A stretch of DNA of 64,000 nt from Thermoplasmatota archaeon. Lineage in GTDB: Archaea > Thermoplasmatota > SW-10-69-26 > JACQPN01 > JAJPHT01. The position numbers and the translations under genes were made by a program. Positions 10,289 to 35,600 of this stretch are shown piece by piece. Numbering within the stretch: position 1 is the first letter of the stretch; the number at the start of each line of letters is the position of its first letter. The stretch is taken from NCBI GenBank assembly GCA_035526585.1, contig DATLCC010000027.1, forward strand, positions 2,660 to 66,659, written 5' to 3'. The notes below the pieces were generated by a model. It worked only from the letters and a program-made list of their open reading frames with translations. It made no database searches and was not told where the DNA came from.

Positions 10289-10316
10289 TTGTTGAACCAG
10301 GTTCAGGAGCAACACC

Positions 10317-11507: not shown

Positions 11508-11677
11508 AGCGGGAGGTCTCCACGCCGCACGTGACCATCACGTACCGCTTACGTGAGCATCCGGTGGCCATCGGGTATCGTGCACGTGATCGCCACGCGC
11601 GACGCACATGGCTCCTGCGCCTGAACCCCCGAGATGGGGTGATGGCGCGAGATCCTTGATATCCATCCTGCGTCTTT

Positions 11678-12013
11678 GTGCCCGCGTGCTTCCGATCCCC
11701 CCTTTTGCGTCGCGCGTTCCGGCGCAGCCGTTCGCGGGTGGGTGCGCTCATCGAGCTGCTTCATCGTGGTGAGCTGAGTGAACGATCGTTCGATCGCGCT
11801 TGGCGCTTTGCCGCAGAATGTCCGGTGCCTTGGTCGGCAACGATCGTTCGTATCGTCGCGTCGATCCGCTCGCGCGTTGGTCTCGTGACGTCGCGCATCG
11901 TGCGCGGGATGGAGACGTATTCGCTGACGCCCTGGGGTCTCGTGGTCGCTCGCATGCTCGAGGCGGAGTTGCAGGCGCCTCGGCCTTTGCAGCTCGCGCT
12001 GCGTGTGCCGTAG
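11678..12013 (+). CDS. possible small winged-helix DNA-binding protein (weak call)
   Basis: The track ORF reads ...VGALIELLHRGELSERSFDRAWRFAAECPVPWSATIVRIVASIRSRVGLVTSRIVRGMETYSLTPWGLVVARMLEAEL, which resembles a helix-turn-helix-wing layout. Codon third positions are noticeably less G/C-biased than in neighbouring genes. The start is uncertain (GTG 11678 or GTG 11738). A TTGATATC element lies at 11656-11663. Confidence 0.3.
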   Translation: MPACFRSPLLRRAFRRSRSRVGALIELLHRGELSERSFDRAWRFAAECPVPWSATIVRIVASIRSRVGLVTSRIVRGMETYSLTPWGLVVARMLEAELQAPRPLQLALRVP

Positions 12014-12014
12014 G

Positions 12015-21545: not shown

Positions 21546-22215
21546 CCGGCAACAACTCCTTCGGGGTGGCCTCGCCGCGGAGCTTGGCTCCGCGCGCGAG
21601 GATGAACAGGGATGCGGCGCCCGCGAGGGCGAGCGCGGCGACGGCGACGCCCAACGGCGCCGTCGTCTCGACGGCGGCGCGCAGCTGCGCGGGGCCGATC
21701 GCGGCGAGGGCGAACGCGGCGCCGATCGCGGCCGCGACGGCGAGCGCGGCGATGGCGGCGCGGCTCGCGAGCGTCTTTAGCGCCTCGTCGGTGACGCGGT
21801 TGATGTGCTCCTCGGGCACGTTCTCCTTCTCGACCGCGCGGTGCGCGCGCTCGTAGCGCTCCGTCATGTGGACGAGCTCGCTCACGAGGAGGAGCGCGAC
21901 GCCGAAGAGCACGCCGATCGCGTACGTGAGGAGCCCGGGGCTCCCGACGCCGCCCGGGATCACGGCGAGGACCATCGCGCCCACGCCCGCGAGGGCGAGG
22001 ACGCTGGAGCGGCGGGCCACGGCGACGAGCGCCGCCACCGCGCCCACGGCGAGGAGCGCGAGGAGCGCGATCGCCGGCACGTGGGCGCCCAGGATGCGGC
22101 CGTCGCCCTTCGACACCTGCACGACGCCCAGCGCGGCGGCCACGACGGCGGCGCCGTACGCGTAGCGGAGAACGCGCTTCTCGTGCGGGAACGGCTCGGT
22201 CTTGGCGGCGCTCAT
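21532..22215 (-). CDS. polytopic membrane protein (227 aa), unknown function, operon member
   Basis: This is the C-terminal part of track ORF 21532..22992, from the ATG at 22215: MSAAKTEPFPHEKRVLRYAYGAAVVAAALGVV.... It has several Ala/Val/Leu-rich TM helices around a charged loop (MTERYERAHRAVEKENVPEEHINRVTDEALK). Its start forms an ATGA overlap with the DUF58 stop. Confidence 0.7.
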   Translation of the reverse strand: MSAAKTEPFPHEKRVLRYAYGAAVVAAALGVVQVSKGDGRILGAHVPAIALLALLAVGAVAALVAVARRSSVLALAGVGAMVLAVIPGGVGSPGLLTYAIGVLFGVALLLVSELVHMTERYERAHRAVEKENVPEEHINRVTDEALKTLASRAAIAALAVAAAIGAAFALAAIGPAQLRAAVETTAPLGVAVAALALAGAASLFILARGAKLRGEATPKELLPDVAE

Positions 22216-23459
22216 GCGACGAGCATCCTCCCTTTCTCCATCGTGGCGGCGAGCAGGTCGCCGGGGTCGAGCTCGATGACGGTGGCGCCGAGGCCCGCGA
22301 CCTCGCGCAGGAGCGTCTCGCGCTCGGCGAAGAGGGCGCGCGCAAGGGCCCCCTCGGCGCCGGGGAGCGCCGGCGGGCGTGGCGCGATGACGGCGACCTG
22401 CATGTTGTTGGCAAGGAGCGTGGAGACGGCCTCGGTGAGCGTGCCGTCGTCCACGCCGGCGGTGAAGAAGATGCAGGGCGTCAAGGGCTTCAAGCTCGGC
22501 AGAGCTTGAGAAACGGCGAACTTCACGGGGAAGTTGCCCTTGGGCTGGAGCTCGGCGAGCGTCTCCAGCATCATGGGGATCATGCGCTCGGGCGGCTGCG
22601 GCTCGATCTCGCGCACGTGGTCGCTGTAGAGGTAGATGCGCGGCTGGTCCTTCTTCACGAAGACGAACTCGGTGAAGCTCGCGACGGCGCGGGCGATCAT
22701 GACGCGCGCGCTCTGGTCCTCGGGGCCGGCGAGCGTGATGCCGCGCGCGTCGACGAAGAGCGTGACCTCCGCCGCGGTCGTGCGCATCATCTGGTTCACG
22801 AGGAGCTTCGACGAGCGCGCGCTCGCCTTCCAGTTGACGCTGCGCAGCGTGTCGCCCGGAACGTATTCGCGGATGCTGAAGAAGTCGAACCCGTCGCCAG
22901 GGCGGTTCACCTGGTGGTCGCCCATGAGCGGCATCGGGAGCGTGGAGAGGAGCGCGGCCTTGCGCAGGTCCTCCGCGCGAGGCAGCACCCACAGGGTGTG
23001 GCTGGCCTCCGTGTGCCGCTCCTCGTAGAAGAGCCCGAACGGGTCCTCGAGGCGCAGGTCGGTGGGGCCGATCTCGTAGACGCCCAGGAGCGGCGCCTTC
23101 ACCTCATACTTCAGGTCGTCCACGGCGCCCGAGGGGAGCGCGAGGAGATCGTACGCCTGCCCGCTCTCGACGGCGAGCTGGCGCGGGAGGCGGTCGCGGA
23201 CCTCGAGGAAGAGGAGCCTGTCGCCCGGGTTCGTGAGGCGCAGCTCGACCTGCGTGCGCTCGCCCTCGAAGACGCGGTGCAGGTCGACCTGGCGCTCGCT
23301 GATGATCTCGTCGCTGCCGCGGAAGAGGAGGCGGTTCACGACGACGAAGGAGAGGAAGACGAGCCCCGTGCCCAGAGCGCCCGCGCTGCGCGAGGCCACG
23401 CCGGCCGCGACGAGCGCGAGACCGGCTCCCGTCAGCAGAACGCTCTTCCTGGTCCACAT
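22212..23459 (-). CDS. DUF58 (VWA-like) domain protein, N-terminally membrane-anchored
   Basis: There are two N-terminal TM helices (LLTGAGLALVAAGVASRSAGALGTGLVFLSFVVV). The DUF58 hallmark follows: FDFFSIREYVPGDTLRSVNWKASARSSKLLVNQ. The position immediately downstream of a MoxR ATPase is the canonical pairing. Confidence 0.85.
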   Translation of the reverse strand: MWTRKSVLLTGAGLALVAAGVASRSAGALGTGLVFLSFVVVNRLLFRGSDEIISERQVDLHRVFEGERTQVELRLTNPGDRLLFLEVRDRLPRQLAVESGQAYDLLALPSGAVDDLKYEVKAPLLGVYEIGPTDLRLEDPFGLFYEERHTEASHTLWVLPRAEDLRKAALLSTLPMPLMGDHQVNRPGDGFDFFSIREYVPGDTLRSVNWKASARSSKLLVNQMMRTTAAEVTLFVDARGITLAGPEDQSARVMIARAVASFTEFVFVKKDQPRIYLYSDHVREIEPQPPERMIPMMLETLAELQPKGNFPVKFAVSQALPSLKPLTPCIFFTAGVDDGTLTEAVSTLLANNMQVAVIAPRPPALPGAEGALARALFAERETLLREVAGLGATVIELDPGDLLAATMEKGRMLVA

Positions 23460-23466: not shown

Positions 23467-24525
23467 TTACACCTTGGGTACGGGCACGCTGTCGAGGATG
23501 TTCTGCATGATGTCCTGCGCCTTGATGCCCTTGATGCGGGGCTCAGGCTTCAGGATCACGCGGTGCGCGAGCACGGGGATCATGAGGCGCTTGATGTCGT
23601 CGGGCACGACGTAGTCCCTCCCGTGGAGCGCGGCCCAGCCGCGGGCGAGCTTGAACAGGTTCTGCGAGCCGCGCGGCGACGAGCCGGCCACGAGCATCGG
23701 GTGCTTGCGGGTCGCGTCGATGAGGTTCGCGATGTAGTGGATGAGCTCGTCCGTGACGTACACGTGCTCGATCGCCTTCTGCATGGCGACGACGATCTCC
23801 GCGTTCGTCACGGGCTTCACGTCGAAGTCGTCCTTGCCGCGCTTGGCGCGGCGGATGAGGATCTCCGCCTCTTCCGCGGCCGTGGGGTAGCCCATGCTGA
23901 GCTTCATCGCGAAGCGGTCCATCTGCGCTTCCGGCAGCGGGTACGTGCCGGCCTGCTCGACCGGGTTCTGCGTCGCGAAGACGACGAAGGGCTTGGGCAG
24001 CTTCTGCGTGTAGCCTTCCACCGTCACCTGCTTCTCGGCCATCGCTTCCAGCATGGCGGACTGCGTCTTGGGGGAAGCGCGGTTGATCTCGTCCGCGAGG
24101 AGGTAGTTCGTGAAGATCGGACCGGGGCGGAAGTCGAACTCGTGCGTCCTCTGGTTGAGGATGAACGTGCCGTTGATGTCCGCCGGCAGGAGGTCGGGCG
24201 TGAACTGGACGCGCTTGAAGTCGCAACCACTCGCTCGAGCCAGAGCGGCCGCAAGGACGCTCTTGCCAAGCCCCGGCATGTCCTCGAGGAGGACGTGGCT
24301 GCCTTCGCTGAAGATGGCGAGCACCACGAGCTTGAGCTGGTCCTTCTTGCCGACGATCACGCGGCCGACCTCGTCGGTGAGCTGCGTGGCCGTCACGCCC
24401 ACGCTCTGGATCTGGGCGCGGACCTTGGGGTCGCGCACGGGCCCGGGGGCGCTGCCGGCGCTCGCGGGCTGGACGGTCGGACCGACGGTGGTGTTGATAC
24501 GTGTGGCTTCAGGCGGCGGGGTCAC
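23467..24525 (-). CDS. moxR: MoxR-family AAA+ ATPase
   Basis: The protein carries VIVGKKDQLKLVVLAIFSEGSHVLLEDMPGLGKSVLA (Walker A), FTPDLLPADINGT, LLADEINRASPKTQSAMLEAMAE (Walker B / sensor), ATQNPVEQAGTYPLPEAQMDRF and GSSPRGS. The GTG start at 24525 forms a GTGA overlap with the upstream stop. Confidence 0.93.
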   Translation of the reverse strand: MTPPPEATRINTTVGPTVQPASAGSAPGPVRDPKVRAQIQSVGVTATQLTDEVGRVIVGKKDQLKLVVLAIFSEGSHVLLEDMPGLGKSVLAAALARASGCDFKRVQFTPDLLPADINGTFILNQRTHEFDFRPGPIFTNYLLADEINRASPKTQSAMLEAMAEKQVTVEGYTQKLPKPFVVFATQNPVEQAGTYPLPEAQMDRFAMKLSMGYPTAAEEAEILIRRAKRGKDDFDVKPVTNAEIVVAMQKAIEHVYVTDELIHYIANLIDATRKHPMLVAGSSPRGSQNLFKLARGWAALHGRDYVVPDDIKRLMIPVLAHRVILKPEPRIKGIKAQDIMQNILDSVPVPKV

Positions 24526-25775
24526 TCAGATCGGGCCTCCGAGGGGCGTGAAAAGGATGCGAAGAGCGGCGCGGGGTCGCTGCGCAGCGTCCCGGCGGCG
24601 GCCTGGGAGAGGGTCGCGTCGCCGGTCAGTCTGGCGAGCTCCTCGGCCGTCATGGCCGCGACCTGCTCTAGGGCTATGTTAAACCTTTCGCTGATGCGGC
24701 GTCGCGCCATGCGCTGGGCACGCTCCAGGTCGGGCCGGACGTCCGCCGGCACGGGGACCTCGACGCCGAGGTTGTGCTCGTGGTGGGTCCAGTCCTCCGT
24801 CTCGCGCGTGGACCACCACGCGACGAGGCTCGCGACGATCACGAGGGCGAGGGTGACCAGGGGCGCGACGGCGCCGCTCGTCGCGCGGCCCAGCGCGCGG
24901 ACGGACGCGTCGTAGCCCGCCACAAGGGGCGCGGGGGAGTGCCGGGCCTCGTCCAGGACGATCGTGCCATCGCGGGGGATCAGGCTCCCGGCGAGCGCCT
25001 GGATGAAGGGCCCGTTCTCGAACTCGACGAGCTTCACCTGCGCATCCATGAAGAGGCCCGTGTCGGCGACGAGGACGAGCGTGCCCTGGCCCGCGCCGTA
25101 CTTCGTGCGCACGATGAGCGGGAACCCTTCGCCAGTGGAGGACGCCTGGTCGCCCACGTCGATCTCGCCGTTGTCGTTCACGTCGAGGTAGCTCCCGTCC
25201 GGGTACACGGCGACGCTCGACTCGGCCAGCACCTCGTGGTCGCCGACGTTCGAGAGGGGCGTGAGGGCGGTCGGGGCGTTGAACAGGATGCGGTAGTCGC
25301 GGCCATCGAGCGCGCCCGTCGTCGCGACGAGCGTCTCGTCGTCGAGGTGGTTGCGCGAGTCGACGAGCGAGGTTCCCATGAACGCGAAGCCGACCTCGCG
25401 CGCGATGTCGCTGCCGTACCCGCCCTCGTCGGCGAGGATGACGTTGCCGCCGCGCGCGAGGAAGTCGAGCACGGCCCGCGATTCGCCCTCGCTGTAGCGG
25501 CGCTCCGTGCCGATCACGACGAGGAGCGCGCGTTGCGGCTCGCGGATGTCGGCGAGCTGGTAGGGCGTCGAGAGGTACGCCTCGACCTTGCCCGCGCTCC
25601 CCGAGAGCGAGGAGAGCGCGAGGCTCGCGTCCTCGTCCCCCTCGCGGTACGCGGTGAGGTGCCGCCCGTCCGTGTTCCACACGAGGGGCGCCAGGAGCCC
25701 GACGGCGAGGAGCGCGAGGATGGTGACGAGCGTGTACGCGCGCTTCTGGGGGTCCTTGAGGAAGCCGAAGATCAT
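24522..25775 (-). CDS. DUF4350-like bitopic membrane protein (417 aa)
   Basis: The layout is an N-terminal TM (AYTLVTILALLAVGLLAPLVW), an extracytoplasmic domain (RALLVVIGTERRYSEGESRAVLDFLARGGNVILADEGGYG), a second TM (VAPLVTLALVIVASLVAWW), and a cytoplasmic tail of about 95 aa. The DUF4350 assignment rests on layout and context. A GAGGTG Shine-Dalgarno-like motif lies 5 nt upstream of the ATG. Confidence 0.7.
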   Translation of the reverse strand: MIFGFLKDPQKRAYTLVTILALLAVGLLAPLVWNTDGRHLTAYREGDEDASLALSSLSGSAGKVEAYLSTPYQLADIREPQRALLVVIGTERRYSEGESRAVLDFLARGGNVILADEGGYGSDIAREVGFAFMGTSLVDSRNHLDDETLVATTGALDGRDYRILFNAPTALTPLSNVGDHEVLAESSVAVYPDGSYLDVNDNGEIDVGDQASSTGEGFPLIVRTKYGAGQGTLVLVADTGLFMDAQVKLVEFENGPFIQALAGSLIPRDGTIVLDEARHSPAPLVAGYDASVRALGRATSGAVAPLVTLALVIVASLVAWWSTRETEDWTHHEHNLGVEVPVPADVRPDLERAQRMARRRISERFNIALEQVAAMTAEELARLTGDATLSQAAAGTLRSDPAPLFASFSRPSEARSE

Positions 25776-25869
25776 GCATCCACCTCGCGGCGCGGAGCAA
25801 CGCGGATCCGCGAACCCTGGACGCGACGCGCGCGGGTGCGCGGGTCCTCGTTGTTGCGTGGGATGGAGA

Positions 25870-28800
25870 TCACGCGCTCACCTTCTTCTCGCCGAGCACC
25901 TTGTTGAGCTCATTCCGGACCGTCGCCAGCGAAGCCACGGCCTGGTCGCGCTCGCGGGATCCGATCGGGTGGTCCGAGTAGCGCGCCTCCTCGAAGAGCC
26001 CGATGAGCGCGCGCAGCGGCGCCGCGCCGATGGGGAGCGCCTTGCGGACGCCGGTCGCGAACTCGCGCGGCGTGTCGCTCGCCTTCTCGGCGAAGCCGTG
26101 GCGCGAGAGGTGCGCGGCGAAGCGCCGGTACGCGAGGAAGATCGTGCCCGCGTACTCGTTGCCTGCGAGGAGATCGCGGATCGCCTCGTCGAGGATCTCG
26201 CGCGCCTCCTGGAGCTGGCGCCGGCGCAGCATGATCGCCGCGAGGACGACGCCGATGAGGGCGAGGACGATCACGACCGCGAGCGCGAGCGCCGCGTAGC
26301 CGATCGGCGTCGCGGGCCCGACGACCTTCATCGTCGTGCTGCGGAACTGCGCGGCGACGACGTCGTTCCCTCCGCGCACGGTGAGCGCGAGGGCCGCGTC
26401 GCCCGAGATGGGCGCGACGCCGGCGAGGGCGCCCTTGCCATCCGCGTTCGTGGCCGCGACGACGGCGCTCGTGCTGGTGCCGATGACGTACGCGAAGCTC
26501 GTGTTGCGCAGGGGCTGCCCCTGGTCGTCCTTGAGGGTGACGCCGCCGCCCAGCGCGAAGCCGCGCACGACGAGCGTCGGGAGCTCGACCTCGACCTTGG
26601 GGCGGATCTTCACGACGACGGGGAACTCCTTCGTGAAGCCGTCATACGCGTCCGTCTGGGGCGCGACGATGCGCAGCGTGGTCGCGCCGCGAGGCAGGTC
26701 CGCGGGGATCTGGATGCTGGAGACGAGCTTGCCATGCGACGAGCGCAGCGCGCCGAGGTCGCGTCCGGCGAGGAACATGCGGAAGGTCGCGTCCACGGGC
26801 GCCCCGCGGTCGTCCGTGACGCGGCCTTCGAGCGGCGCCTGCTCGTTGCGCACGAAGGGGCCAAGCGTCGTGAAGTCGACGTTGAGGGGACTGCGGACGT
26901 ACCACACGACCTCGCTCGTCGCGTTCGCGACCGTGGAGCTGCCGACGAAGCGCGCGCTCGCGCGGTGCGCGCCAAGCTTCGTGTCGTCGCCGAGCACGCG
27001 CGCGAGCTCGAAGGAGCCGTTGCGGCTCGTGCGCGCCTCGCCCACGCTCACGCCGTCGATGGCGAACAGGATGGCGGCGCCGGGGAGCGGGTGCTTCTCG
27101 TCGTCGACGAGGCGTCCCGCGAGCGAGACGGGGCCGCGCGTGACGCTCGCGTTCCCGAGCTCGAGGCGCACGCCCTGCACGACGCGCACGGTGGCGGCCG
27201 CCGAGGTCGGCTGGTAGATGCCGTTCGCGAGCGGCGTGAAGTCGGCGCCCAGCGACGCGAGGGCGGGGCGCTCGCTCGCGTTGGTCGGGACGAGGAAGCT
27301 CACGCTGCCCGACGCGTCGGTGACGATGACCTCGAGGCGCTGGCCGCGCCAGTAGCCCGCGATCGGCTGCGAGACGATGGCCTTGCCCTTGTCGTCGACG
27401 AGGTGCGCGCGCATCGCGAAGACCTCGCCGCGCACGATCGTGTCGGGCGCCTCCTCGATGACGAGGCGCGTCGTGGACGTGACGCGCGCCTGCGTCAGGT
27501 TCTCGGCGCGCGCGTGCGCGGTGTCGCCGGGGAAGACGACGCGCAGCGCCTGCGTGCCGAGGTCGAGGCCGGCGAGGGGCACCGTCACGGCGAACGCGCC
27601 GTCGCTGTCGGCGAGCCCGCGCGCGAGCATGCCAGCCTTGTCGGAGTGCACCTCGATCACGCCGTCGAAGCCTTGGCCCTCGTTGTCGAGGAGCTTGCCG
27701 CGGATGGACACCTCGATCGTGCGGGGGCCTTCCACGCGGTTGAGCTCGACGACCCTCGCGGTGCGTTTGATGTCGAGCGGGAGGGTGACGTTCGTCGGGG
27801 CGGCGGTGTCGCTTCCCGCGAAGGTGAGGCGCAGCATCTGGGGCCCCGCCGCGATCGAGCCTGGCACCTCGATGCGCACGGCGAAGCGGCCGCCCGCGTC
27901 GGTGGTCGCGCTCTCCTCCACGCCGCCAAGCTCGAGCGTGACGGGCGCGGTGCCGATCGCGCCGCCCGCGCGCTCGGTGCCATCCGCGAGCGTGACGGCG
28001 CGCGCAAGGAGCTGGCCGCTCACGGTGACGGTCTCGCCCACCGTGGCGGACGCGCTCTCGGCGCGCGCGTCGAAGCGCGTGGGGTCCCGCACCTTGATCG
28101 GGAGGATCCTCTCGGTCGAGAGGAGGAAGGGATCGAGGCTCGTGAAGCTCGCGCTCAGCTGGTGCTGGTCGGGTCGGGCGACGCCGACGGGGATGCCGAC
28201 GCGCGTGAGGTTGATCTTGCCGTTGCGGTCGGTGCTGAGGTTCTTGAGCTCAAGCGGGCTCGTGGAGCCCGTCCACTTGACGATCACGGTGCGGTCGATG
28301 AGCGGCGCGCCCGAGCTGTCGGCGAGCGTCAGCTCGCCCACGAGCGTCCCGCCGTTGTCCGCCGTGTCGGCGACGTCCATCTCGATGTCCGTCGCGGCGC
28401 GCACGCTCACGGGCACGGGCGCGGAGACGGCGAACCTCGTCGCGTGCACGTTCACGTCGCGGACGACGCCGTTCCTGTCCGCGACGCGCGCCTTGTGCGT
28501 GCCGTACGTCGGGTCGCCGGGGACGGCGCCGACGCTCGTGTTGTAGACCCACGCGACGAGGCGGTTCTGCTCGCCGTGCGTCTGCGCGCCGGTGTCGAGC
28601 TGCGTCGGGTCGAAGTGGCCCAGCGCCGAGCCCTGGATGTTGCCAAAGAGGACGAGCCCGGGCGCGGGGATCGCGTAGACGCGGTCCTCGGTGATGTTCA
28701 CGCTGAGGTTGAACGCGCCCGTCGCGTTCGTGAAGCCCGCGCCGACGACGCGGTCGCCGCCGGGCGCGAACACGCTCACGAGGACCGTGCGGTTCGCGAC

Positions 28801-31800
28801 GCCGACGCGGCTTGCTTCGCTCCCTTCGAGGAGCGCGCCCGAGGCGCCGCACACGCCGCCCGCGCGCTCGTTGAGCACGACGCGGCCGCTGACGTTGAAC
28901 TCGACGCCCTTGTCGACGGTGGTGGGCGCTGCGAGGTCGAGCACGGCCACGCACGCGCGCATGTCGCGCACGAGGACGCCGCTCGGGTCCGCGAGGTTGA
29001 GCGCAGCCTCGCGCGCGGCCTGGGGCGCGCCGGCGCCCTCGCCGATGCGCTGCGCGCGCAGGCGCTGCGCGTCCGCGGGGCCCGCGGCCTTGACCCACGC
29101 TTCGAGCTCGCGCATGTCGAGGATGGTGGTCGCGCCGTCCACGACGCGGTTCAGGCGGTTGATCGCGGGGAAGGGATCCTCGCCCGTCGCGTCGTGGAGG
29201 CCGTCGTGGTCGGCGTCGGCGACGGCGCCGGCGGGGTCGTCGCCCCACCACCAGACGCCCTCCGTCGCCTCGACCCACCAGTCGGGCTTGTGCGCCTCGT
29301 AGGCGGCCGTGATCGCGTCGCGCTCCTTGGGGTCCTGGTCGTAGTACGCGATCCACCCGTCGGGCACGCCGGGGACGACGCTGTCGAGCTTGTCCGGGCG
29401 CATGTTGAACGGCTCCTGGCCGTAGTTGCGCTCGCCGAGGAAGTTGATCGTGCCGTCCGTGAGCGTCTCGTGCGCGATGCCGCGCGCGAGCCATTTCGCG
29501 ACGAGGGTCGCGTCCGCGAGCGGATCGAGGTTCACGGTGAGCCCGTCGAGGAGGCCGTCGCCGTCCGTGTCCTCGTCCTTCGGGTTCGTGCGGATGCTCT
29601 CGCCGAAGAACGTCTTCGCGTCCTTGCCGGTGAGCTCCTGGAAGTCGGGGACCGTGTCTCCGTCCTTGTCGACGCCGCCGGTCTTGAAGCTCTCCACGTC
29701 CGTCGTGTCGAGCGCGTTGTTGCCGGCGGTGACCTCGATGCCGTCGTCGATCCCGTCGAGGTCCGTGTCGAGCGCGTTGGGGTCGGAGCCCGCCCCGAGC
29801 GTCTCGTCGCCCTGCTGGAACGTCACGATCTCGCAGCGCCCGGTCGGGCCGGCTTCGCATTCCTGCGCGACGTTCAAGCCGTCGCCGTCGGGGTCCTTCG
29901 AGCGATCGTCCGTCGCCGGGTCCGGATACGCGGAGCCGCCGCTGCTCTGGACGCGGTAGTGCGCCTCGAAGGCGTCGGGCGCGCCGTCGCCGTCCGTGTC
30001 GCCCATGTAGGGGTTCGTCCGCAGGCGCGCCTCGTCGGCGTAGGTCAACGTGCGCGCGCCGTAGATGCGCGCGGCCTTCACCGCGACGTTGTCGAGGTTG
30101 AGATCGGCGAAGCAGTTGTTGTCGTCCGCGAGCCGCTCGCCGCTCTTGAGCTCGCCCGAGAGATCGCCCGGCGGGCAGCCCGCGATCGCGGTCGTGAAGC
30201 GCACGTAGCCCGTGGTCTTCGCGCCCATGCCGCGCAGGTCGGCGATGGGCGTGATGGGCGAGTCGGCGAGCGCCTCGTCGATCTCCGCCATCGCCGCGAG
30301 CGCGACGCCGCCGAGGCTCGCGTCGCGGGCGGCCACGAGGCTCGGGTACGTGCCGCTCGTGATGCGGCTGCCCCAGAACGCCTTCCAGCCGTCGGGCACG
30401 CCGTCCGCGGTCGTGTTGAGCTCGTTGGGGTCCGTCTCGGCCTTGAACTCGAGCTCGTTCGTGAAGACGAAGGCGTGCGCGGTGCGCTCGTTGGACGCGC
30501 TGCGCGCCTCGAAGGAGTACCAGACGACGGAGTCGCCGTCGTTGTTGGCCTTGTCGTCGGTGACGCCGTCCGCGTCGGAGTCGGCGCGCCCTGGGTCGAG
30601 GTCCCACAGCCCGCGCGCGGCGTCGAAGCGTCCGTAGCGGATCTCCCACGCGTCGGGCAGGTCGTCGCCGTCGGTGTCGGGGTTCGCCGGGTCCGTCGCC
30701 GTGTGCGGGACGGGCGTGGCGAACTCGGTGAGCCGGTACGCGGCCGGGTCTATCTCGGGGCCGCCGAGGAAGTAGACCTTGTCGCGCGCGGTGCCCGGCG
30801 CGGCGAACTTCTCGACGAAAAGACCGCCCGAGGGGTCGGGGTCGGCGACGTTCATCACGCCGTCGCCGTCGACGTCCGCGTCGGGGCGATACTTCGCGAC
30901 GCGGTCCGCGTCGGAGAGGCTCGCGAGGCTCGGGTAGAGCTTCATCCAGTCGTGCACGGTCGAGAAGCGCGTCTGCGCGACGGAGCCGTTCCCGTTGTAC
31001 GGGTAGCGCGGGCTCTGGCGGAGCGCCTCGTACGTGTCGTGCCAGAAGGAGACGCGCGCGCCGTCCTTCACGTGGTCGCCGGCCGAGTCCGCCTTCGTCG
31101 GATCGAGCCCGGCGCTCGTCCCGGAGGGGCGGACCTCATACTTCGCTTCGCCGCGGACGACGCCGCACACCTTCTCCTCGTCGGAAAGCTGCGAGAAGGC
31201 CGTGTCGCGGTTCCTCGGGTCGGTGGGCGGGAAGGAGCGCTCGGTCGTCGTGCCGCACGCGGCGCGCCCGAGGTACTCCTCGATGTCGGTGAGGCCGTCG
31301 CCGTCCGAGTCGGGCTCGAGCGGGTTCGACGTCGCAAGGTAGGCGCGCGGCTTCGCCTCGGGGCCGGTGTCGAACGTGACGTTCGCGTACCAGCCGCGGA
31401 TCTCGATCGGGTCGGGGAGGCCGTCCGCGTCGCTGTCGAGCGTGACGGGGTTCGTGCCGCCCCACCAGACGCCCTTCACGGACTCGTTCCAGTCGTCGGG
31501 GCGCGCGTATTCGTACGCGCCGCGCACGGTGAAGACGATGTCAGGGAGCGCCTTCTGGCCTTCCGGCGCGTAGGTGCGGTATTCGGCGAAGTCGCTCGCC
31601 CTGCCGATCACCTGGTCCACGTCCGCGCCGAACGGGGAGAGACCGTAGCGGACGTACCAGCCATCCGGGATGCCCGTCTGGGCGGTCTGCCAGTCCAAGG
31701 GGTTGAGCCCCTTGGCGTACTGCGTCGGCCGCCCCTCGGCGTCGGCGAGGGTCGGCCGGCTGGCCTCGAACTCCTCGAAGTTCGTGAGGCCGTCGCGGTC

Positions 31801-32637
31801 GGGATCCTGCGTCGCGACCGTCGGGTCCGTCACGGAGAGCTTGTAGCGCAGGAGCCAGCCGTCCGCGATCCCGATGCCGGCGGTGCTGAACTTGTTGGGA
31901 GCGGTCTGCGTGACGTGGATCTCCGTCCAGTCGTCGAGCCCGTCGCGGTCGCTGTCGGCTTCGAGCGGATCCGTGTCCGCCTCGAACGCCTCGAGGAGCG
32001 TCAGGTTGCCACGGCTCCCGGAGGCGACGCGGTCCGGCTGCACGTCCTTGAGCGGGACGCCGTGGTGGAGGAGCCAGCCGACGGGGAGCCCGCCCGTCGC
32101 GGGCGCGTCCGCGAGGGGGCTCGCATGCTCGGCCTTGCGCCACCAGGGGGCGTCCACGCCGGGCCTGTAGTCCGTGGGCTTGTTGTAGCTGTAGTAGACC
32201 GAGAGCGGGGGCGTGTACGCGCTCGGGTATCCTGCCGCGTAGACCGCCGGGAGCTTCGACGCGGCCGGCGCCTCGCCGTGCGCGTCGCGCGTGCTCGGGT
32301 CGAGCGGGTCGAAGCGGAACTCGACGAGCCATCCGTCCGGGATCCCGATGCCGGCGCTGTCCCAGTTCTGCGGGTCCGTGCCGTAGACGTAGTTCTCCAG
32401 CGCGTCGGAGAGGCCGTCGTTGTCCGCGTCGCGCTCCGTGAGCCCGCCTGCGCTGATCCGGTCGAGGTCCGTCGTGTCCGAGACGCGCGCGGCGGTGATG
32501 CCAAGCGCCCCGGGAGAGACGAGCGCGGTCGCGGCGATCGCGACGAGGAGGAGGACCGCGACGGCGCCGATCGCGATGGGGACCGCGTGGCGCGCAAGGC
32601 GCGTGGTGACGCTCGCGGGGACGAGCCGTGATATCAA
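25870..32637 (-). CDS. giant envelope protein D (2255 aa): N-terminal TM, thrombospondin-type-3-like Ca-binding repeats, tandem prealbumin/Ig-like domains, second TM, cytoplasmic DUF4129 tail
   Basis: The TTG start lies 2 nt after the upstream stop. The first TM is AVPIAIGAVAVLLLVAIAATALV. There are at least 14 D-x-D-x-D-G-x-x-D motifs (DADNDGLSD, DSDRDGLDD, DPDRDGLTN, DSDADGLPD, DSDGDGLTD, DTDGDGAPD, DPDGDGLNV, DTDLDGIDD, DKDGDTVPD, DTDGDGLLD...), often followed by G-I-P-D-G-W. There are about 8 tandem modules of the v-x-G-x-L-x-D-x-x-G-x-P type (e.g. LAGRLVDDEKHPLPGAAILFAIDGVSVGEARTSRNGSFEL). The second TM is YAALALAVVIVLALIGVVLAAIMLRRR. The C-terminus FLAYRRF...LIGLFEEARYSDHP matches the DUF4129 A-R-Y motif. 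Confidence 0.88.
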   Translation of the reverse strand: MISRLVPASVTTRLARHAVPIAIGAVAVLLLVAIAATALVSPGALGITAARVSDTTDLDRISAGGLTERDADNDGLSDALENYVYGTDPQNWDSAGIGIPDGWLVEFRFDPLDPSTRDAHGEAPAASKLPAVYAAGYPSAYTPPLSVYYSYNKPTDYRPGVDAPWWRKAEHASPLADAPATGGLPVGWLLHHGVPLKDVQPDRVASGSRGNLTLLEAFEADTDPLEADSDRDGLDDWTEIHVTQTAPNKFSTAGIGIADGWLLRYKLSVTDPTVATQDPDRDGLTNFEEFEASRPTLADAEGRPTQYAKGLNPLDWQTAQTGIPDGWYVRYGLSPFGADVDQVIGRASDFAEYRTYAPEGQKALPDIVFTVRGAYEYARPDDWNESVKGVWWGGTNPVTLDSDADGLPDPIEIRGWYANVTFDTGPEAKPRAYLATSNPLEPDSDGDGLTDIEEYLGRAACGTTTERSFPPTDPRNRDTAFSQLSDEEKVCGVVRGEAKYEVRPSGTSAGLDPTKADSAGDHVKDGARVSFWHDTYEALRQSPRYPYNGNGSVAQTRFSTVHDWMKLYPSLASLSDADRVAKYRPDADVDGDGVMNVADPDPSGGLFVEKFAAPGTARDKVYFLGGPEIDPAAYRLTEFATPVPHTATDPANPDTDGDDLPDAWEIRYGRFDAARGLWDLDPGRADSDADGVTDDKANNDGDSVVWYSFEARSASNERTAHAFVFTNELEFKAETDPNELNTTADGVPDGWKAFWGSRITSGTYPSLVAARDASLGGVALAAMAEIDEALADSPITPIADLRGMGAKTTGYVRFTTAIAGCPPGDLSGELKSGERLADDNNCFADLNLDNVAVKAARIYGARTLTYADEARLRTNPYMGDTDGDGAPDAFEAHYRVQSSGGSAYPDPATDDRSKDPDGDGLNVAQECEAGPTGRCEIVTFQQGDETLGAGSDPNALDTDLDGIDDGIEVTAGNNALDTTDVESFKTGGVDKDGDTVPDFQELTGKDAKTFFGESIRTNPKDEDTDGDGLLDGLTVNLDPLADATLVAKWLARGIAHETLTDGTINFLGERNYGQEPFNMRPDKLDSVVPGVPDGWIAYYDQDPKERDAITAAYEAHKPDWWVEATEGVWWWGDDPAGAVADADHDGLHDATGEDPFPAINRLNRVVDGATTILDMRELEAWVKAAGPADAQRLRAQRIGEGAGAPQAAREAALNLADPSGVLVRDMRACVAVLDLAAPTTVDKGVEFNVSGRVVLNERAGGVCGASGALLEGSEASRVGVANRTVLVSVFAPGGDRVVGAGFTNATGAFNLSVNITEDRVYAIPAPGLVLFGNIQGSALGHFDPTQLDTGAQTHGEQNRLVAWVYNTSVGAVPGDPTYGTHKARVADRNGVVRDVNVHATRFAVSAPVPVSVRAATDIEMDVADTADNGGTLVGELTLADSSGAPLIDRTVIVKWTGSTSPLELKNLSTDRNGKINLTRVGIPVGVARPDQHQLSASFTSLDPFLLSTERILPIKVRDPTRFDARAESASATVGETVTVSGQLLARAVTLADGTERAGGAIGTAPVTLELGGVEESATTDAGGRFAVRIEVPGSIAAGPQMLRLTFAGSDTAAPTNVTLPLDIKRTARVVELNRVEGPRTIEVSIRGKLLDNEGQGFDGVIEVHSDKAGMLARGLADSDGAFAVTVPLAGLDLGTQALRVVFPGDTAHARAENLTQARVTSTTRLVIEEAPDTIVRGEVFAMRAHLVDDKGKAIVSQPIAGYWRGQRLEVIVTDASGSVSFLVPTNASERPALASLGADFTPLANGIYQPTSAAATVRVVQGVRLELGNASVTRGPVSLAGRLVDDEKHPLPGAAILFAIDGVSVGEARTSRNGSFELARVLGDDTKLGAHRASARFVGSSTVANATSEVVWYVRSPLNVDFTTLGPFVRNEQAPLEGRVTDDRGAPVDATFRMFLAGRDLGALRSSHGKLVSSIQIPADLPRGATTLRIVAPQTDAYDGFTKEFPVVVKIRPKVEVELPTLVVRGFALGGGVTLKDDQGQPLRNTSFAYVIGTSTSAVVAATNADGKGALAGVAPISGDAALALTVRGGNDVVAAQFRSTTMKVVGPATPIGYAALALAVVIVLALIGVVLAAIMLRRRQLQEAREILDEAIRDLLAGNEYAGTIFLAYRRFAAHLSRHGFAEKASDTPREFATGVRKALPIGAAPLRALIGLFEEARYSDHPIGSRERDQAVASLATVRNELNKVLGEKKVSA

Positions 32638-32639: not shown

Positions 32640-35600
32640 TCAGCGCTCGTCACGCTCCCTCTGTCCGGAGGCGCTGCGCGCTGCCAGCCGGAGCGCCGGA
32701 GCCGACGAAGTCCCGAAGGCGTCCTTCGGCGCTTCGCTCCGTTCGGCGCTTGGGTGGCCCGGCCGTACTGCGGCACGTCTTCGCCTCGCTGCGCTGCGGC
32801 CCCGCTGGAGGCGCGTCGTCGTCGCGACGAGCGCGATGACAGCGAGAAGCGCGAAGAGCCCGGGTCCAGGCACTCCGATCTTGGAGCCGAAGTGGACGCC
32901 CTGCTCGCTCGCGCTGCGGTCGCTGAGGCTCATCTCGTTGTCGGGGTCGAGCACGACCTTCACGTCGCCGCCACGCTGCGTGCTCACCCACGAGAGCGTC
33001 GCGAGCGCGCTGGACCCGACGGGGATGCGCGAGAGCTGCACCTTGTCGACGGTGCGGCCGTCGACGACGAGCGCGACGCTCACGTTCTCGGCCTCGATGC
33101 CGCCGGCGTTCTGCACGGTCGCGGAGACGAGGATCAGCTCGCCGGCCTTGAGCGAGCCGCTGCCGGTGACGCTCGCGAGCGAGAGCTGCGGCCGGGCGAC
33201 GTTGACGTCGAGCGGCGCTCCGCCGGCCGCGGCGCCCGCGACGGCGGCGTGGAGCTCGACTCGCACGGCGCCGTCAGGCGCGTCCTTCGTGGCGTTGAGC
33301 GAGAGGAGCGCGTCGACGGCCTCGCCGGGCGCAAGGTGCGCGCGGGTGGGCGCGAAGGTCGCATTCCACCCTTCGGGCGCCTGCGCCGTGAGGTCGAAGG
33401 TCCCTTCGACGTTGCCGACGTTCTTCACGTGATAGCTCAGCGCGATCGGGCGCCCGGGTGTGAGGCCGACGCTCTTCGGCCCGCCGAAGTCGACGCGGGA
33501 GACGGCCTTCACGTTCACGGGGATGGAGACGTTCTGGAGGGCCTCGCGCGAGAGGCGCGTGGTGAAGGTGAGGTTGTAGGCGCCCGGCGGCGTGCCGGCG
33601 GGGACGTCGATGCGCAGGGGAAGGTCCGCGCTGTCGTTCACCTCCAGCGTGAACCCCTCGGATTCGAGCGTGACGGGCCACGCAGGCGTGACGCTGGACG
33701 CGCCTGCGGGCGCGTCCGCGCCCCGCTTCACTTCGGTGGCGCCGGCGAGGAGCTCGACCGCGACCTGGCCGTTGCCGCGGTTCGTGACGGGGAGGACGAA
33801 GTGGAGGACCTCGCCCGGCTCAGCCTCGGGGTCGAACACGGGCGCGGTCGCGAGGTCGTAGATGCGGCGCACGACGACGACGGCGGAGACCTCGTCGCCC
33901 GCGACGCGGCCGCCTGTGCCGCCCGTGTCGATCTCGGCGGCGATCTTCACGCTCGCGAGGTCGCCCGCGCGGGCGCCAGGGGGCGGGGTGACGTCGACGT
34001 GCAGGACGTAGCTCAGGTTGGGATCGTTCGCGGGGTTCGGATTGAGCGTGATCTCGCCGACCGAGAGGTCGGCTCGCCAACCTTTCGGCAGGATGCTGTC
34101 CTCGTGGAAGATCACGGTGAAGACGTCGTTGCCCTTGTTGCGCGTGGTGAGGTTGAACCGGACCGTCTCGTTGGGCTCGGCGAGGCGCGTCTGCGGGTCG
34201 AGGTTGAGCTCGAGGTCCACCTTGGGACGGATGCGCGTCGCCGTGTTCACGACGTCGGCGGCGAGCGCGCTCGCGGCGCTGCGGGCCGTGATGCTCACGA
34301 TGTTCTGGGGAGCGGTCTCCGCGTTGGGCGCCTTCACGCGGAAGGTGAGCGTCGTGCTCTCCCCGCCATCGAGGCGCAGCGAGGTCACGGGCTCGTCGTC
34401 GAGGAGGAGCGCCTGCTCCCAGCCGGGCCGCGGATCCTCCACGGCGAGCGCGAACGTGTCGGTCGTGCTGCCGGTGTTCTTCACGACGATCTGATAGCGA
34501 TGCTCCGCGCCGGGATCGAGGCCGATGGGCGGGTCGATCGTCTTGCGGCCACCTTCGACGTCGAACCACATGCCCACGCCGTAGGCGATCTTCACATAGA
34601 CGCTGATCTTGAACGTCGCAGCCACCCCGCCGGCCTTGCTCCGGGCCTCGACCAGGATGGTGCGCGACTTGTTCACGTCTTCAGCAGACGGCGTCACCAC
34701 GACGTTGAGCCGCTCCGACGAACCGCTGGTGAGCGTGAACTCCTTCGCGCACCCTTCCACGGTCCACCCTTCGGGCGTCGAGCAGGCGACCTCGATCGTG
34801 TCGGTCAACCCCTCGCCCGCCACCCAGCGGCCCAGGTTCAGGACGTCGAGGCGCACGGAGAGGGGCGAGCCGGGGCCGGTGCTCAGCGGCAGCGAGCGCT
34901 GCTCGGTCTGAGGGCTGCGGATCTCGACGAGCGGGCCGCGGAACTCGGCGCGGCCGATCGTCGCGTCGATCGGGACGGGACGCCCGGGCGGGTAGTAGGA
35001 GTAGCCGATGCCGTGCGGCAGCCGCTCGCGCGTGACCGAGTCCTCGGTGAAGAATTCGGCGGGCGAGAGCGAGACGGCCGAGATCGGCTTCGTGCTGAGG
35101 AGGTGCACCTGGCCCGTGAGGTCGCCCGTGGGCTCGCGGAGGCTCACGAACTCGTCGCGCTGCAAGGAGCGCACCTGCGTCGTGTAGTTGAGCTCGCCGT
35201 TGCGGTCGTGCTCCGTCACGATGGTGAGCTTCGTGTTGTTGTAGTGGCCGAAGATGCCGACGCCCTGCGAGTCCTTCGTGTCCACGTAGTAGTCGATGCC
35301 CGCGAGGCCCGCGTAGGGGCCGATCATGGGGCGCGTGACGTTCTTCGTGGGATCGCCCATCTCGCGCTCGCGCGCGCCCACGAAGAGGCGGAAGGCGGCC
35401 GGAGGCGCTGGCGGGTCGGAGCGCGCGTCGGGCGTCGTGTAGAACTCGTAGAGCGGTTGCGGGCTGACGCTCTTCTGCACGGCGACCTCCTCGCACCCCT
35501 GGCGCTTCTCGAGCTCCTTGCCGGGCGCGTTGGGCAGAAGCCCTTCCGGGTAGATCTGCAGCGAGCCCGACTCGTAGTTGAGCACGCGCACCGTGGCGTT

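Follow-up and report, generated by a model that had tools for sequence, protein, structure and literature searches.

MoxR-DUF58-TgpA-type operons are widespread. To our knowledge they have no known mechanism, and DUF4129, the domain in which we take TgpA itself to end, has neither an assigned role nor a solved structure. Presumably, PA2875 and PA2874 are the corresponding MoxR and DUF58 proteins of Pseudomonas aeruginosa. Our literature search found no paper linking DUF4129 with MoxR or with DUF4350. Operons of this type matter for bacterial envelope integrity and viability (PMC3507681, PMC3893208): TgpA (PA2873) of P. aeruginosa has a periplasmic transglutaminase (TGase) domain, is encoded in a predicted PA2875-PA2872 operon and is essential (PMC3507681), while MoxR proteins, working with VWA partners, act as maturation chaperones, and envelope integrity depends on RL3499 (PMC3893208). 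The PFNA cluster of bifidobacteria, which consists of pkb2, fn3, aaa-atp (MoxR), duf58 and tgm, has been proposed to have a cell-surface role (PMC8430577). In Poseidoniales, 'thrombospondin' genes have been discussed as adhesion factors (PMC6461757).

The window analyzed here is a 64,000-nucleotide stretch of contig DATLCC010000027.1. It includes a gene for a 2255-aa DUF4129 protein, which we infer to be a membrane-anchored, surface-exposed protein of an uncultured Thermoplasmatota archaeon. Like TgpA, it would be an envelope protein with its bulk outside the cytoplasmic membrane, and like TgpA-type proteins it has a C-terminal transmembrane (TM) helix followed by DUF4129, with MoxR and DUF58 genes adjoining. 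Unlike TgpA, the protein has no transglutaminase core, a single N-terminal TM segment rather than the 5-TM TgpA_N domain, and an ectodomain of ~2050 aa rather than ~365 aa; it is also archaeal, and its cassette additionally has DUF4350.

Gene cluster

The DUF4129 gene lies within a ~44-kb single-strand run of genes, in which neighbors mostly overlap by a few bases. The cluster consists of five giant membrane-anchored surface proteins (~13,000 aa in total) together with a DUF4350 protein, a MoxR AAA+ ATPase, a DUF58 protein and a small membrane protein, as follows (domains from Pfam and anchors from a TM scan, except where stated).

49150..61638 (-): first cluster gene, encoding a surface protein of 4162 aa; fn3 and Big domains, weak TSP3 match, signal peptide, TM anchor at the C terminus
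36908..49153 (-): surface protein of 4081 aa; CARDB x4 and NEW3, signal peptide, TM anchor at the C terminus
32640..36911 (-): surface protein of 1423 aa ('protein C'); NEW3/CARDB/DUF11-like domains, C-terminal TM helix, 54-aa basic tail
25870..32637 (-): the DUF4129 gene (2255-aa product), beginning with TTG at 32637, stop codon included (ORF list and translation)
24522..25775 (-): 417-aa DUF4350 protein with a TM helix, a ~260-aa GIFT/GldG-like ectodomain, a second TM helix and a 93-aa cytoplasmic tail (also tail alignment)
23467..24525 (-): 352-aa MoxR-type AAA+ ATPase, soluble, pI 9.0 (Pfam AAA_3 and AAA_lid_2)
22212..23459 (-): 415-aa DUF58 protein with an N-terminal hydrophobic hairpin (Pfam DUF58, E=1.6e-12; ortholog alignment)
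21532..22215 (-): 227-aa multi-TM protein whose ATG overlaps the DUF58 stop (ATGA) (sequence read, TM scan)
17781..21545 (-): last large gene, encoding a surface protein of 1254 aa; CARDB, PKD and Big domains, TM anchor at the C terminus

The ORF at 25870-32637 (-) is confirmed as a genuine gene, its product being 100% identical over the full length to NCBI MAG protein P0001 ('DUF4129 domain-containing protein [Candidatus Thermoplasmatota archaeon]'). It is overlapped by the protein C gene by 4 bp, and the 94-nt spacer before the DUF4350 gene showed no promoter- or terminator-like site. Orthologs of the 4081-aa protein (3499-4310 aa) occupy the upstream position in loci L001-L004, and the 1254-aa protein, whose gene begins within the 3' end of the 227-aa gene, has an ortholog in L001 and L005.

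Two of these neighbors had been assigned cytoplasmic tails in a preliminary description of the locus. For the DUF4350 protein (Pfam DUF4350, E=4e-10; ABC_transp_aux match weak), the expected ~95-aa tail measures 93 aa and is kept in seven of eight orthologs. The ~60-aa basic tail of protein C is present in this ORF as 54 aa, but its orthologs in L001, L002 and L004 end 4-7 residues past the TM helix; by our own estimate, a run of 54 stop-free codons at 70% GC would arise by chance about one time in three.

The MoxR protein is readily recognized (AAA_3, 206.8 bits; AAA_lid_2, 85.2 bits; Walker A 'PGLGKS', Walker B 'LLADE'). The two N-terminal helices said to tether DUF58 to the membrane correspond to a hydrophobic hairpin that is conserved among orthologs. 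The MIDAS position of DUF58 reads D-A-R-G-I-T, the pattern D-x-R-x-x-[ST] is found in all seven aligned sequences with the canonical DxSxS absent, and a weak VWA_2 match was obtained for the L063 DUF58 only. The position of the 227-aa protein is also occupied in L001-L003 and in a Streptomyces cassette (see below). Its weak Pfam match to TgpA_N (E=1.2e-3, 18.3 bits against a cut-off of 30) might suggest a split-off TgpA_N domain; we rejected this because hhalign comparisons with the TgpA_N-bearing protein P0179 and with the Streptomyces ~200-aa protein were both empty, and regard the 227-aa protein as a positional analog only.

Architecture and topology of the 2255-aa protein

From N to C terminus, the protein consists of a hydrophobic anchor, ~1100 residues of Asp-rich TSP3-type loops, eight sequon-rich Ig-like modules, a TM helix and the DUF4129 bundle.

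32488..32601 (-): N-terminal hydrophobic segment, residues 13-50, preceded by Arg residues (Kyte-Doolittle scan)
29167..32436 (-): acidic ectodomain, residues 68-1157, with ~12-15 TSP3-type DxDxDG(L/I)xD loops and 5 degenerate 'G(I/V)PDGW' loops (regular expressions against shuffles)
26323..28932 (-): array of Ig-like/prealbumin-like modules, 8 or possibly 9, over residues 1236-2105; enriched in N-x-S/T sequons (jackhmmer self-profile)
26212..26325 (-): second TM helix, residues 2105-2142, then RRR (Kyte-Doolittle maximum 3.27)
25873..26211 (-): C-terminal DUF4129 domain, residues 2143-2255, predicted cytoplasmic helical bundle with motifs TPREF and LFEEARYS (Pfam PF13559)

The N-terminal segment is kept in nearly all of 61 homologs, with K+R values of 2.85 before and 1.15 after it, and may be either a signal anchor or a signal peptide, uncleaved or cleaved. 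The second helix, earlier placed at 26221-26300, falls within the hydrophobic segment at 26212-26325. Across the 61 homologs its flanks hold a mean of 4.20 K+R per 15 aa after the helix versus 0.74 before it, and the excess on the C-terminal side is seen in 98% of them. The Ig half holds 15 N-glycosylation sequons where shuffles give 4.0 +/- 1.8, and the tail has none. From this charge bias and sequon enrichment, the bulk of the protein is predicted to be extracellular and the DUF4129 bundle cytoplasmic. The data thus support a two-TM, N-in/C-in topology in which, as first proposed, the DUF4129 segment would share the side of the N-terminus; about 2054 residues separate the two hydrophobic segments, close to the ~2050 originally counted as extracytoplasmic. 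In the AF2 model, a single continuous helix runs from the second TM segment into the first helix of the cytoplasmic domain.

At least 14 TSP3-like motifs had been reported for the N-terminal half. We likewise counted 14 DxDxDG occurrences (two overlapping pairs included), against 0.18 expected and a maximum of 4 in 2000 shuffles, but the strict DxDxDGxxD form occurs only 9 times, and the Pfam TSP3_bac model (PF18884) gave 20.0 bits against a cut-off of 25, in one stretch, residues 70-91. Precomputed PF18884 matches are present in many homologs, and in A1 and A4 (homolog alignment) the Asp positions of the loops are fully or almost fully conserved. The 'aGIGIPDGW' element that was said to follow many of the motifs exists, but with 5 relaxed and 2 strict occurrences 'many' was an overstatement; because its register matches the latter half of a TSP3 loop, we read it as a degenerate loop without Asp ligands rather than a separate element. 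The family profile matches the Ca-site region of anthrax protective antigen (PA) and C2-II (residues ~173-245; PDB profiles), and there are local profile and fold matches to the Ca-sites of PA and Bap. The AF2 model of the N-terminal 1150-aa ectodomain (pLDDT 86.6) found no PDB fold match at E<=1e-3. The TSP3-type loops probably bind calcium.

The estimate of about eight tandem prealbumin/Ig-like modules was borne out by the iterated profile, which returned eight, the modal number among the 61 homologs; an unmatched 100-aa gap at 1323-1421 could hold a ninth. Pfam matches in the array are all sub-threshold (CarboxypepD_reg, MG4, Big_3_5), and PDB profile matches are to invasin, intimin and the MG domains of TEP1/A2M. 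With MG4 at 20.3 bits against a cut-off of 24.7, and the thioester CxEQ motif of alpha-2-macroglobulin/TEP proteins not found in the 2255-aa protein, this likeness is at the level of the repeat and not of A2M/TEP membership. The sequons of the array are probably glycosylated. No Transglut_core match was found in the protein by Pfam; it has 8 Cys in total, and across the 61 homologs no Cys or His is invariant or near-invariant, as a Cys-His-Asp triad would entail. The multi-TM TgpA_N (DUF3488) domain is absent as well, the N-terminal hydrophobic segment being single.

The assignment of the C-terminal segment to DUF4129 was upheld by PF13559, which matches residues 2169-2237 over profile positions 1-68 of 69 (E=2.6e-15, 56.7 bits against a cut-off of 24.8). 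AF2 models the domain as five helices (pLDDT 90). Searches of the bundle against the PDB gave nothing significant, the best hit being E=0.03 by fold (HEPN-like bundles) and E=0.11 by sequence. We rejected an identification as HEPN on these values, on TM-scores of ~0.5 and on the absence of the conserved Rx4-6H motif. The polar motifs TPREF and LFEEARY are strongly kept from Streptomyces to archaea, and Y2220 is invariant. All 150 best representatives and the Streptomyces protein share the ending of C-terminal TM helix plus DUF4129, whatever the size of the ectodomain.

Conservation among relatives

More than 100 full-length homologs of 2000-2400 aa were found. Their operon order, a giant of ~4000 aa, a ~1350-aa protein, the DUF4129 protein (~2200 aa), DUF4350, MoxR, DUF58 and a ~220-aa membrane protein, is the same in L001-L006 and L062 at 24-49% identity. 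The 2255-aa protein is no one-off hypertrophy. The preliminary description had called it a hypertrophied version of a normally small protein; the DUF4129 protein of a bacterial cassette is indeed 325 aa, but the norm in Thermoplasmatota is 2000-2700 aa, and 'hypertrophied' is misleading, since the state is conserved across the clade and has its kin in giant TgpA-like proteins with a transglutaminase core. We did not count short DUF4129 relatives as evidence for small forms: P0165 (216 aa) abuts the edge of its 1.3-kb contig, and no initial Met is present in 39 of the 150 best representatives.

Linkage of the DUF4129 protein to DUF4350-MoxR-DUF58 is tight and translationally coupled, and is kept down to 24% identity. 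One genome carries two diverged complete copies of the module (MoxR 55%, DUF58 31% and DUF4129 32% identical), which was thus co-duplicated as a whole unit. One cassette has two tandem ~1200-aa DUF4129 proteins. We found no output domain, kinase or transcription factor conserved in the operon by Pfam and by comparison of the relatives' loci; an HTH gene follows the operon only in L004. Together these loci define a conserved but unstudied system.

There are exceptions. In Marine Group II, about 50 complete ORFs of 2560-2720 aa have the same DUF4129 tail with MoxR, DUF58 and DUF4350 absent within 10 kb, the 1391-aa relative P0153 has no cassette alongside, and L063 has DUF4350 and DUF58 with no MoxR between them.

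Comparison with described systems

The link to TgpA is provided by relatives of intermediate architecture. P0179 and the L063 protein carry TgpA_N, Transglut_core, TSP3 x7, Ig, TM and DUF4129, and these transglutaminase-bearing giants align colinearly with the 2255-aa protein over 790 aa (E=4e-44). The L063 giant also adjoins DUF4350 and DUF58. As giant relatives carry the transglutaminase core, we regard the 2255-aa protein as having a TgpA-like architecture without the enzyme.

A plasmid of Streptomyces sp. NBC_01136 (NZ_CP108633.1, OG762_RS03650-03670) has the same gene order: DUF4129, TM protein, MoxR, DUF58 and a ~200-aa multi-TM protein. Its MoxR is 49% identical to the archaeal protein, with a common (E)D-x-PGLGK(S/T) Walker A; DUF4129 is again C-terminal after the last TM segment, and an N-terminal hydrophobic segment together with a non-canonical MIDAS motif recurs in DUF58. 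In contrast, the Streptomyces DUF4129 protein has 4 TM segments in its 325 aa and almost no ectodomain, giant surface proteins are lacking and the second gene is without DUF4350 annotation. The Marine Group II (Poseidoniales) proteins resemble ours in the TM-DUF4129 ending (39% identical in the 2687-aa ORF of CM001443.1, LFEEARYSDH kept) and in a giant ectodomain with Ig-like/CarboxypepD_reg modules, whereas, cassette aside, the ectodomains are unalignable save for a few modules.

The PFNA cluster shares the MoxR-DUF58 pair beside a large secreted FN3 repeat protein and a membrane transglutaminase-like protein. By its description it differs in being bacterial, in having a Ser/Thr kinase that phosphorylates MoxR, in retaining the TGase-like enzyme and in having no TSP3/Ig giant with a DUF4129 tail. 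The bacterial TSP3-repeat surface proteins CglD (of Myxococcus) and MtsD and the anthrax protective antigen Ca-site have DxDxDG(I/L)PD-type calcium loops in common with the 2255-aa protein. NCBIfam matches to CglD (78 bits, cut-off 400) and MtsD (33 bits, cut-off 800) are partial and too far below the family cut-offs for equivalog membership, so this similarity is at the repeat level only; in addition, the 2255-aa protein has neither a VWA domain nor a lipoprotein signal.

Discussion

The explanation we favor, with a probability of roughly 45%, is that this gene supplies the membrane-spanning linker subunit of a cell-surface system conserved in Thermoplasmatota. The giant ectodomains would build a calcium-stabilized assembly with an adhesive or envelope role. 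At the cytoplasmic face, contact would be made by the DUF4129 bundle, probably joined by the conserved DUF4350 tail and the membrane-tethered DUF58; through this contact the dedicated MoxR chaperone ATPase would assemble, mature or remodel the transmembrane complex, in parallel with the bacterial MoxR-DUF58-TgpA envelope operons. Control might take the form of inside-out activation, assembly chaperoning or outside-in sensing. A more ambitious version, in which the system is an archaeal counterpart of inside-out adhesion control, strikes us as improbable: that the MoxR ring and tethered DUF58 engage both the DUF4129 and DUF4350 domains for ATP-driven assembly or switching of a calcium-rigidified ~13,000-aa coat of giant surface proteins, with DUF4129 a universal cytoplasmic handle by which MoxR cassettes are coupled to machinery outside the membrane in bacteria (TgpA) and archaea.

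The linker-subunit explanation draws on the domain architecture and predicted topology, on the gene order kept among relatives, co-duplicated and recurring on the Streptomyces plasmid, on the colinearity with the TgpA-like giants, and on the published work on TgpA (PMC3507681) and MoxR proteins (PMC3893208). Weighing against it are the Marine Group II tails and P0153, which lack a cassette, the L063 locus, which lacks MoxR, and the degenerate DUF58 MIDAS.

We consider it conceivable, if doubtful, that the DUF4129 bundle is instead an autonomous membrane-proximal anchor or oligomerization domain, perhaps bundling copies of the giant protein, with MoxR and DUF58 having another target, for example DUF4350 or the small TM protein; gene linkage would then reflect a shared pathway without tail docking. 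In its favor are the cassette-free DUF4129 tails of Marine Group II giants and P0153, a bundle that resembles only generic four-helix bundles (Foldseek best E=0.03) and an unconserved protein C tail. However, conservation of the polar motifs (TPREF, LFEEARY; Y2220) between Streptomyces and archaea suggests a specific conserved partner, and both the co-duplication of the whole module and the recurrence of the DUF4129-X-MoxR-DUF58 order across domains of life also count against it.

It is unlikely, in our judgment, that the cassette is an aid to export or insertion, with a membrane platform composed of DUF4350, DUF58, the small TM protein and the DUF4129 TM/tail that MoxR would use in keeping the 1200-4200-aa precursors competent for translocation and anchoring. 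We know of no MoxR ATPase that acts as an unfoldase or translocation motor, which counts against this idea, as do the missing giant protein in the Streptomyces cassette and the Marine Group II giants that do without an adjoining cassette. It gains some appeal from the placement of each conserved cassette copy in the clade among giant secreted or anchored proteins, and from the description of MoxR proteins as maturation chaperones (PMC3893208).

The model of the preliminary description, in which MoxR and DUF58 pull or act on three tails (DUF4129, protein C and DUF4350) as an integrin-like inside-out adhesin switch, now appears quite improbable in that form. In the integrin/talin and LapA-LapD-LapG systems, the state of a large calcium-dependent adhesin is set from the cytoplasm via a membrane-spanning adaptor; these are functional analogies only, with no homology to the archaeal system. 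The predicted N-in/C-in topology, the conserved and co-duplicated gene linkage and the kept DUF4350 tail lend the docking and inside-out idea partial support. Against three tails stand the loss of the protein C tail in orthologs, its open run being one that chance could supply, the degenerate MIDAS motif of DUF58 and the Marine Group II counter-examples without a cassette within 10 kb. Inside-out control of an adhesin would be one among several readings that the data allow. Least probable of all is an outside-in sensor, in which an ectodomain that binds calcium and ligands would signal contact at the surface, or the ionic conditions there, via the TM helix to the DUF4129 bundle, which would then gate MoxR/DUF58 activity: the continuous AF2 helix, as in many single-pass receptors, and the highly conserved, Asp-rich ectodomain suit it, but the operon offers no conserved output domain, kinase or transcription factor, and an HTH gene follows in L004 only.

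Compared with the bacterial operons, the archaeal version lacks the enzyme domain; what is left is a giant ectodomain joined by one TM helix to a conserved cytoplasmic bundle of 110 aa, beside a dedicated, co-duplicated ATPase module. This enzyme-free arrangement makes the question of what MoxR and DUF58 touch directly testable with a small soluble domain. Uncultured Thermoplasmatota spend ~44 kb on this one surface system, which is relevant to the way these abundant archaea construct their surface and adhere to particles.

Organization and conservation of the gene cluster

A run of minus-strand genes, the majority overlapping by a few bases, extends from ~61.6 kb down to 17.8 kb of the window, which has a G+C content of ~70%. 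The genes of this run and those flanking it are as follows.

49150-61638, minus strand: 4162-aa protein
36908-49153, minus strand: 4081-aa protein
32640-36911, minus strand: 1423-aa protein (protein C)
32643-32804, minus strand: Arg/Ala/Ser-rich 54-aa extension of protein C, following its TM anchor
25870-32637, minus strand: 2255-aa DUF4129 protein
24522-25775, minus strand: DUF4350 protein
23467-24525, minus strand: MoxR AAA_3 ATPase
22212-23459, minus strand: DUF58 protein
21532-22215, minus strand: 227-aa multi-TM protein, its ATG inside the ATGA at the DUF58 stop
17781-21545, minus strand: 1254-aa protein
12015-14915 (minus strand), 10317-11507, 2459-4111 and 7792-8592 (plus strand): flanking genes

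Nothing unusual is encoded by the flanking genes, whose products are a MacB/FtsX-type ABC permease, an acyl-CoA dehydrogenase, a Cys/Met PLP enzyme and an AlaX-like editing protein. A plus-strand ORF of 2347 aa (25588-32631) lies antisense to the 2255-aa gene, and the other genes of the cluster have comparably long shadow ORFs. Such stop-poor frames are expected at 70% G+C, and we do not count this ORF as evidence of a gene; all homology is on the minus strand. The spacer between the DUF4129 and DUF4350 genes is 94 nt long (25776-25869), as opposed to orthologous pairs that overlap or sit 8-11 nt apart; GAGGTG occurs 6 nt before the ATG, and a scan of the spacer found no promoter- or terminator-like site.

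The 2255-aa protein was already annotated, being 100% identical to a MAG-derived NCBI entry, "DUF4129 domain-containing protein", from Candidatus Thermoplasmatota archaeon. Its distinct homologues of 2000-2400 aa number more than 100, with identity down to about 25%, and nearly all of them carry the label Thermoplasmatota, Euryarchaeota or Methanobacteriota. DUF4129 proteins had been described as normally small, which holds for bacteria, as a Streptomyces plasmid bears the small canonical form (325 aa), but not for Thermoplasmatota, in which the giant form is the rule.

Gene order is also conserved. Four related loci, L001 (49% identity), L002 (30%), L003 (27%) and L004 (24%), keep the succession of a giant protein (3499-4310 aa), a protein of ~1290-1377 aa, the DUF4129 protein (~2100-2400 aa), DUF4350, MoxR and DUF58, followed in L001, L002 and L003 by a protein of ~206-227 aa; fragments of this operon were found at L005, L006 and L062. 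The L005 contig (JAJPHT010000008.1) is labelled a "Proteobacteria bacterium" MAG, yet its operon gives tblastn statistics identical to those of archaeal L001, so the contig is probably archaeal and was binned wrongly. L002 and L004 belong to one genome, and each has a separate, diverged set of all the components (55% identity for MoxR, 31% for DUF58, 32% for the DUF4129 protein and 25% for the ~1350-aa protein). Duplication and divergence have therefore affected the module as a whole, in favor of one dedicated ATPase per surface set.

Architecture and topology of the 2255-aa protein

A Kyte-Doolittle scan gave exactly two hydrophobic stretches, at residues 13-50 and 2105-2142, and Pfam DUF4129 matched residues 2169-2237 at 56.7 bits (cut-off 24.8), both as the preliminary description had proposed. 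Across 61 homologues, the mean number of K+R per 15 residues was 2.85 before and 1.15 after the first TM segment, and 0.74 before and 4.20 after the second, with the higher count after the second segment in 98%. The Ig half contains 15 N-x-S/T sequons, compared with 4.0 +/- 1.8 in shuffles, and the tail contains none. Flank bias and sequon distribution agree with each other and fit a cytoplasmic tail; together they support a protein with its N terminus in, its bulk out and its C terminus, with DUF4129, in the cytoplasm, as had been suggested. Cleavage of the long N-terminal hydrophobic segment, should it occur, would leave the tail on the same side of the membrane. For this archaeal host, "envelope" refers to its one cell membrane together with any coat on it.

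An AF2 model of residues 2098-2255 (35 homologues, pLDDT 90) predicts a TM helix that continues unbroken as a long helix, with four more behind it. No solved relative of the tail was found by Foldseek (best E=0.03, to HEPN-type bundles at a TM-score of about 0.5) or by sequence profile (best E=0.11).

At least 14 D-x-D-x-D-G-x-x-D motifs had been claimed for the N-terminal half; the shorter DxDxDG does occur 14 times, but the strict form only nine. The 14 compare with a mean of 0.18 in 2000 shuffles (maximum 4), and the Asp positions of the loops are invariant or nearly so in 61 full-length homologues. Pfam TSP3_bac scores 20 bits, under its cut-off of 25, although many homologues do bear that annotation, and the family profile matches anthrax protective antigen (PA) and C2-II over their calcium-binding stretch. 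The conserved aGIGIPDGW element is real, but it is present in five copies rather than many. Comparison of DTDGDDLPDAWEIRYG, NTTADGVPDGWKAFWG and DSAGIGIPDGWLVEF aligns it with the second half of the TSP3 loop, and we read it as a putative degenerate loop whose Asp ligands are gone. The AF2 model of residues 41-1190 (pLDDT 86.6) had no PDB fold match at E<=1e-3, only local likeness to the PA and Bap calcium sites.

The estimate of about eight Ig-like modules stood: an iterated profile seeded with one module detected eight at residues 1236-2105, the modal number in the family, with a 100-aa unmatched gap that could hold a ninth. Profile matches to invasin, intimin and TEP1/A2M MG domains are in keeping with a rigid stalk.

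Cassette partners

Two neighbouring cytoplasmic tails had been proposed as docking sites, of which the DUF4350 tail is conserved in seven of eight orthologues. The basic tail of protein C is present in the window ORF (54 aa after the TM) but absent from its counterparts in L001, L002 and L004, whose sequences stop 4-7 residues past it. By our own estimate, about one in three 54-codon runs is expected to be stop-free at 70% G+C. This tail is probably read-through of a stop-free spacer and no docking site. The DUF4350 ectodomain gives a weak ABC_transp_aux (GldG-like) match (E=1.1e-3), and its L063 counterpart (10402-11853) matches the IFT52 GIFT domain (E=2.9e-4); these weak matches suggest a GIFT-like fold.

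The N-terminal hairpin tethering DUF58 to the membrane is conserved. Its VWA MIDAS position (DxSxS) reads D-x-R-x-x-[ST] in 7/7 aligned sequences and in all the archaeal orthologues (the window, L001-L004, L062, L063 and L088), and is non-canonical in a Streptomyces cassette too (D-V-L-A-D); canonical metal binding is probably not a property of this VWA-like partner. The first Gly of Walker A is usual in MoxR proteins, whereas the window MoxR has Asp there (E-D-M-P-G-L-G-K-S), as does the Streptomyces cassette MoxR (E-D-L-P-G-L-G-K-T). This Asp may mark a DUF4129-associated MoxR subgroup.

Relatives of the DUF4129 tail

A profile of the TM helix plus DUF4129 tail retrieved 11,264 cluster representatives at E<=1e-3. 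In every one of the best 150, DUF4129 is C-terminal behind a TM segment; 46 of these 150 are 2000-2500 aa long, 34 are 1000-1500 aa and five are longer than 2500 aa. An initial Met is missing from many of the short entries, and the single one looked up sits at a contig end. Relatives of 2653-2963 aa combine Transglut_core and DUF4129 with TSP3 and Ig modules; one of them also has a weak TgpA_N match.

The protein is related to TgpA-like proteins. At L063 (Thermoplasmata archaeon SG225.bin14, 2429-14810), a 2658-aa protein (P0179) with TgpA_N, Transglut_core, seven TSP3, Ig and DUF4129 precedes DUF4350, DUF58 and an unannotated 551-aa ORF; the 20-kb locus has no MoxR gene, including between DUF4350 and DUF58. 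P0179 is colinear with the 2255-aa protein over Ig array, TM and tail (790 residues, E=4e-44), and over the TSP3 region too. The 2255-aa protein shares the TgpA-like layout but has neither the multi-TM N-domain nor the enzyme, as the family has no invariant Cys or His and the protein gave no TGase match. In the Streptomyces plasmid cassette, the 325-aa DUF4129 protein, whose four TM segments precede the domain, is followed in order by a 176-aa TM protein, MoxR (49% identity to the window MoxR), DUF58 and a multi-TM protein of 200 aa.

Marine Group II archaea have about 50 complete ORFs of 2560-2720 aa with a closely related C-terminal tail (39% identity in the one example compared, with LFEEARYSDH conserved), and no MoxR, DUF58 or DUF4350 gene lies within 10 kb of any of them. 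In one such genome (CM001443.1), a 519-aa TSP3-repeat protein (675-2234) is encoded directly upstream of the 2687-aa DUF4129 protein (2483-10546); on its downstream side are ribosomal protein L13 and a 1574-aa ORF that has no annotation, and there is no MoxR cassette. A 1391-aa relative also stands alone. At L087 (JGI 3300033143, Ga0366829_1002348), two tandem ~1200-aa DUF4129 genes precede DUF4350, an 88-aa gene, MoxR and DUF58. About 2.5 kb upstream of this cassette is an archaellum operon (FlaC/D/E, flagellins, FlaH, FlaI, FlaJ), with an opposite-strand RFC-like AAA gene between the two. Given these exceptions and the tandem variant, linkage of DUF4129 to the cassette is frequent and modular, not obligatory.

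A model for the cassette

MoxR/VWA pairs have been proposed in general to assemble or remodel complexes, and bacterial MoxR-DUF58-TGase operons have envelope phenotypes (PMC3893208, PMC3507681, PMC8430577). We tentatively favor a model, with a probability of roughly 0.45 for its parts jointly, in which the five giant proteins would build a glycosylated assembly at the surface, stabilized by calcium; at the cytoplasmic face the DUF4129 bundle would make contact together with the DUF4350 tail and membrane-tethered DUF58, and through this contact a dedicated MoxR chaperone would assemble or remodel the complex.

That DUF4129 is instead an autonomous anchor or oligomerization domain seems rather unlikely, and an export platform built from the cassette distinctly so. 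More doubtful still is the inside-out adhesin switch first proposed, in which MoxR and DUF58 act on the cytoplasmic tails: the docking idea is limited by the unconserved protein C tail, the non-canonical DUF58 site, the cassette-free Marine Group II giants, the solitary 1391-aa relative and L063. An outside-in sensor is the least probable.

Adhesion factors noted earlier in Poseidoniales include thrombospondin-type genes (PMC6461757); we found no literature joining DUF4129 to MoxR or DUF4350, or describing this operon. We rate the system as a MoxR-DUF58 envelope cassette of the TgpA type, set among giant surface proteins, with a DUF4129 subunit that is enzyme-less and has a 2050-aa TSP3/Ig ectodomain. 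The system, whose mechanism we infer, is real and conserved, and offers a clean test case for what MoxR/DUF58 cassettes touch.
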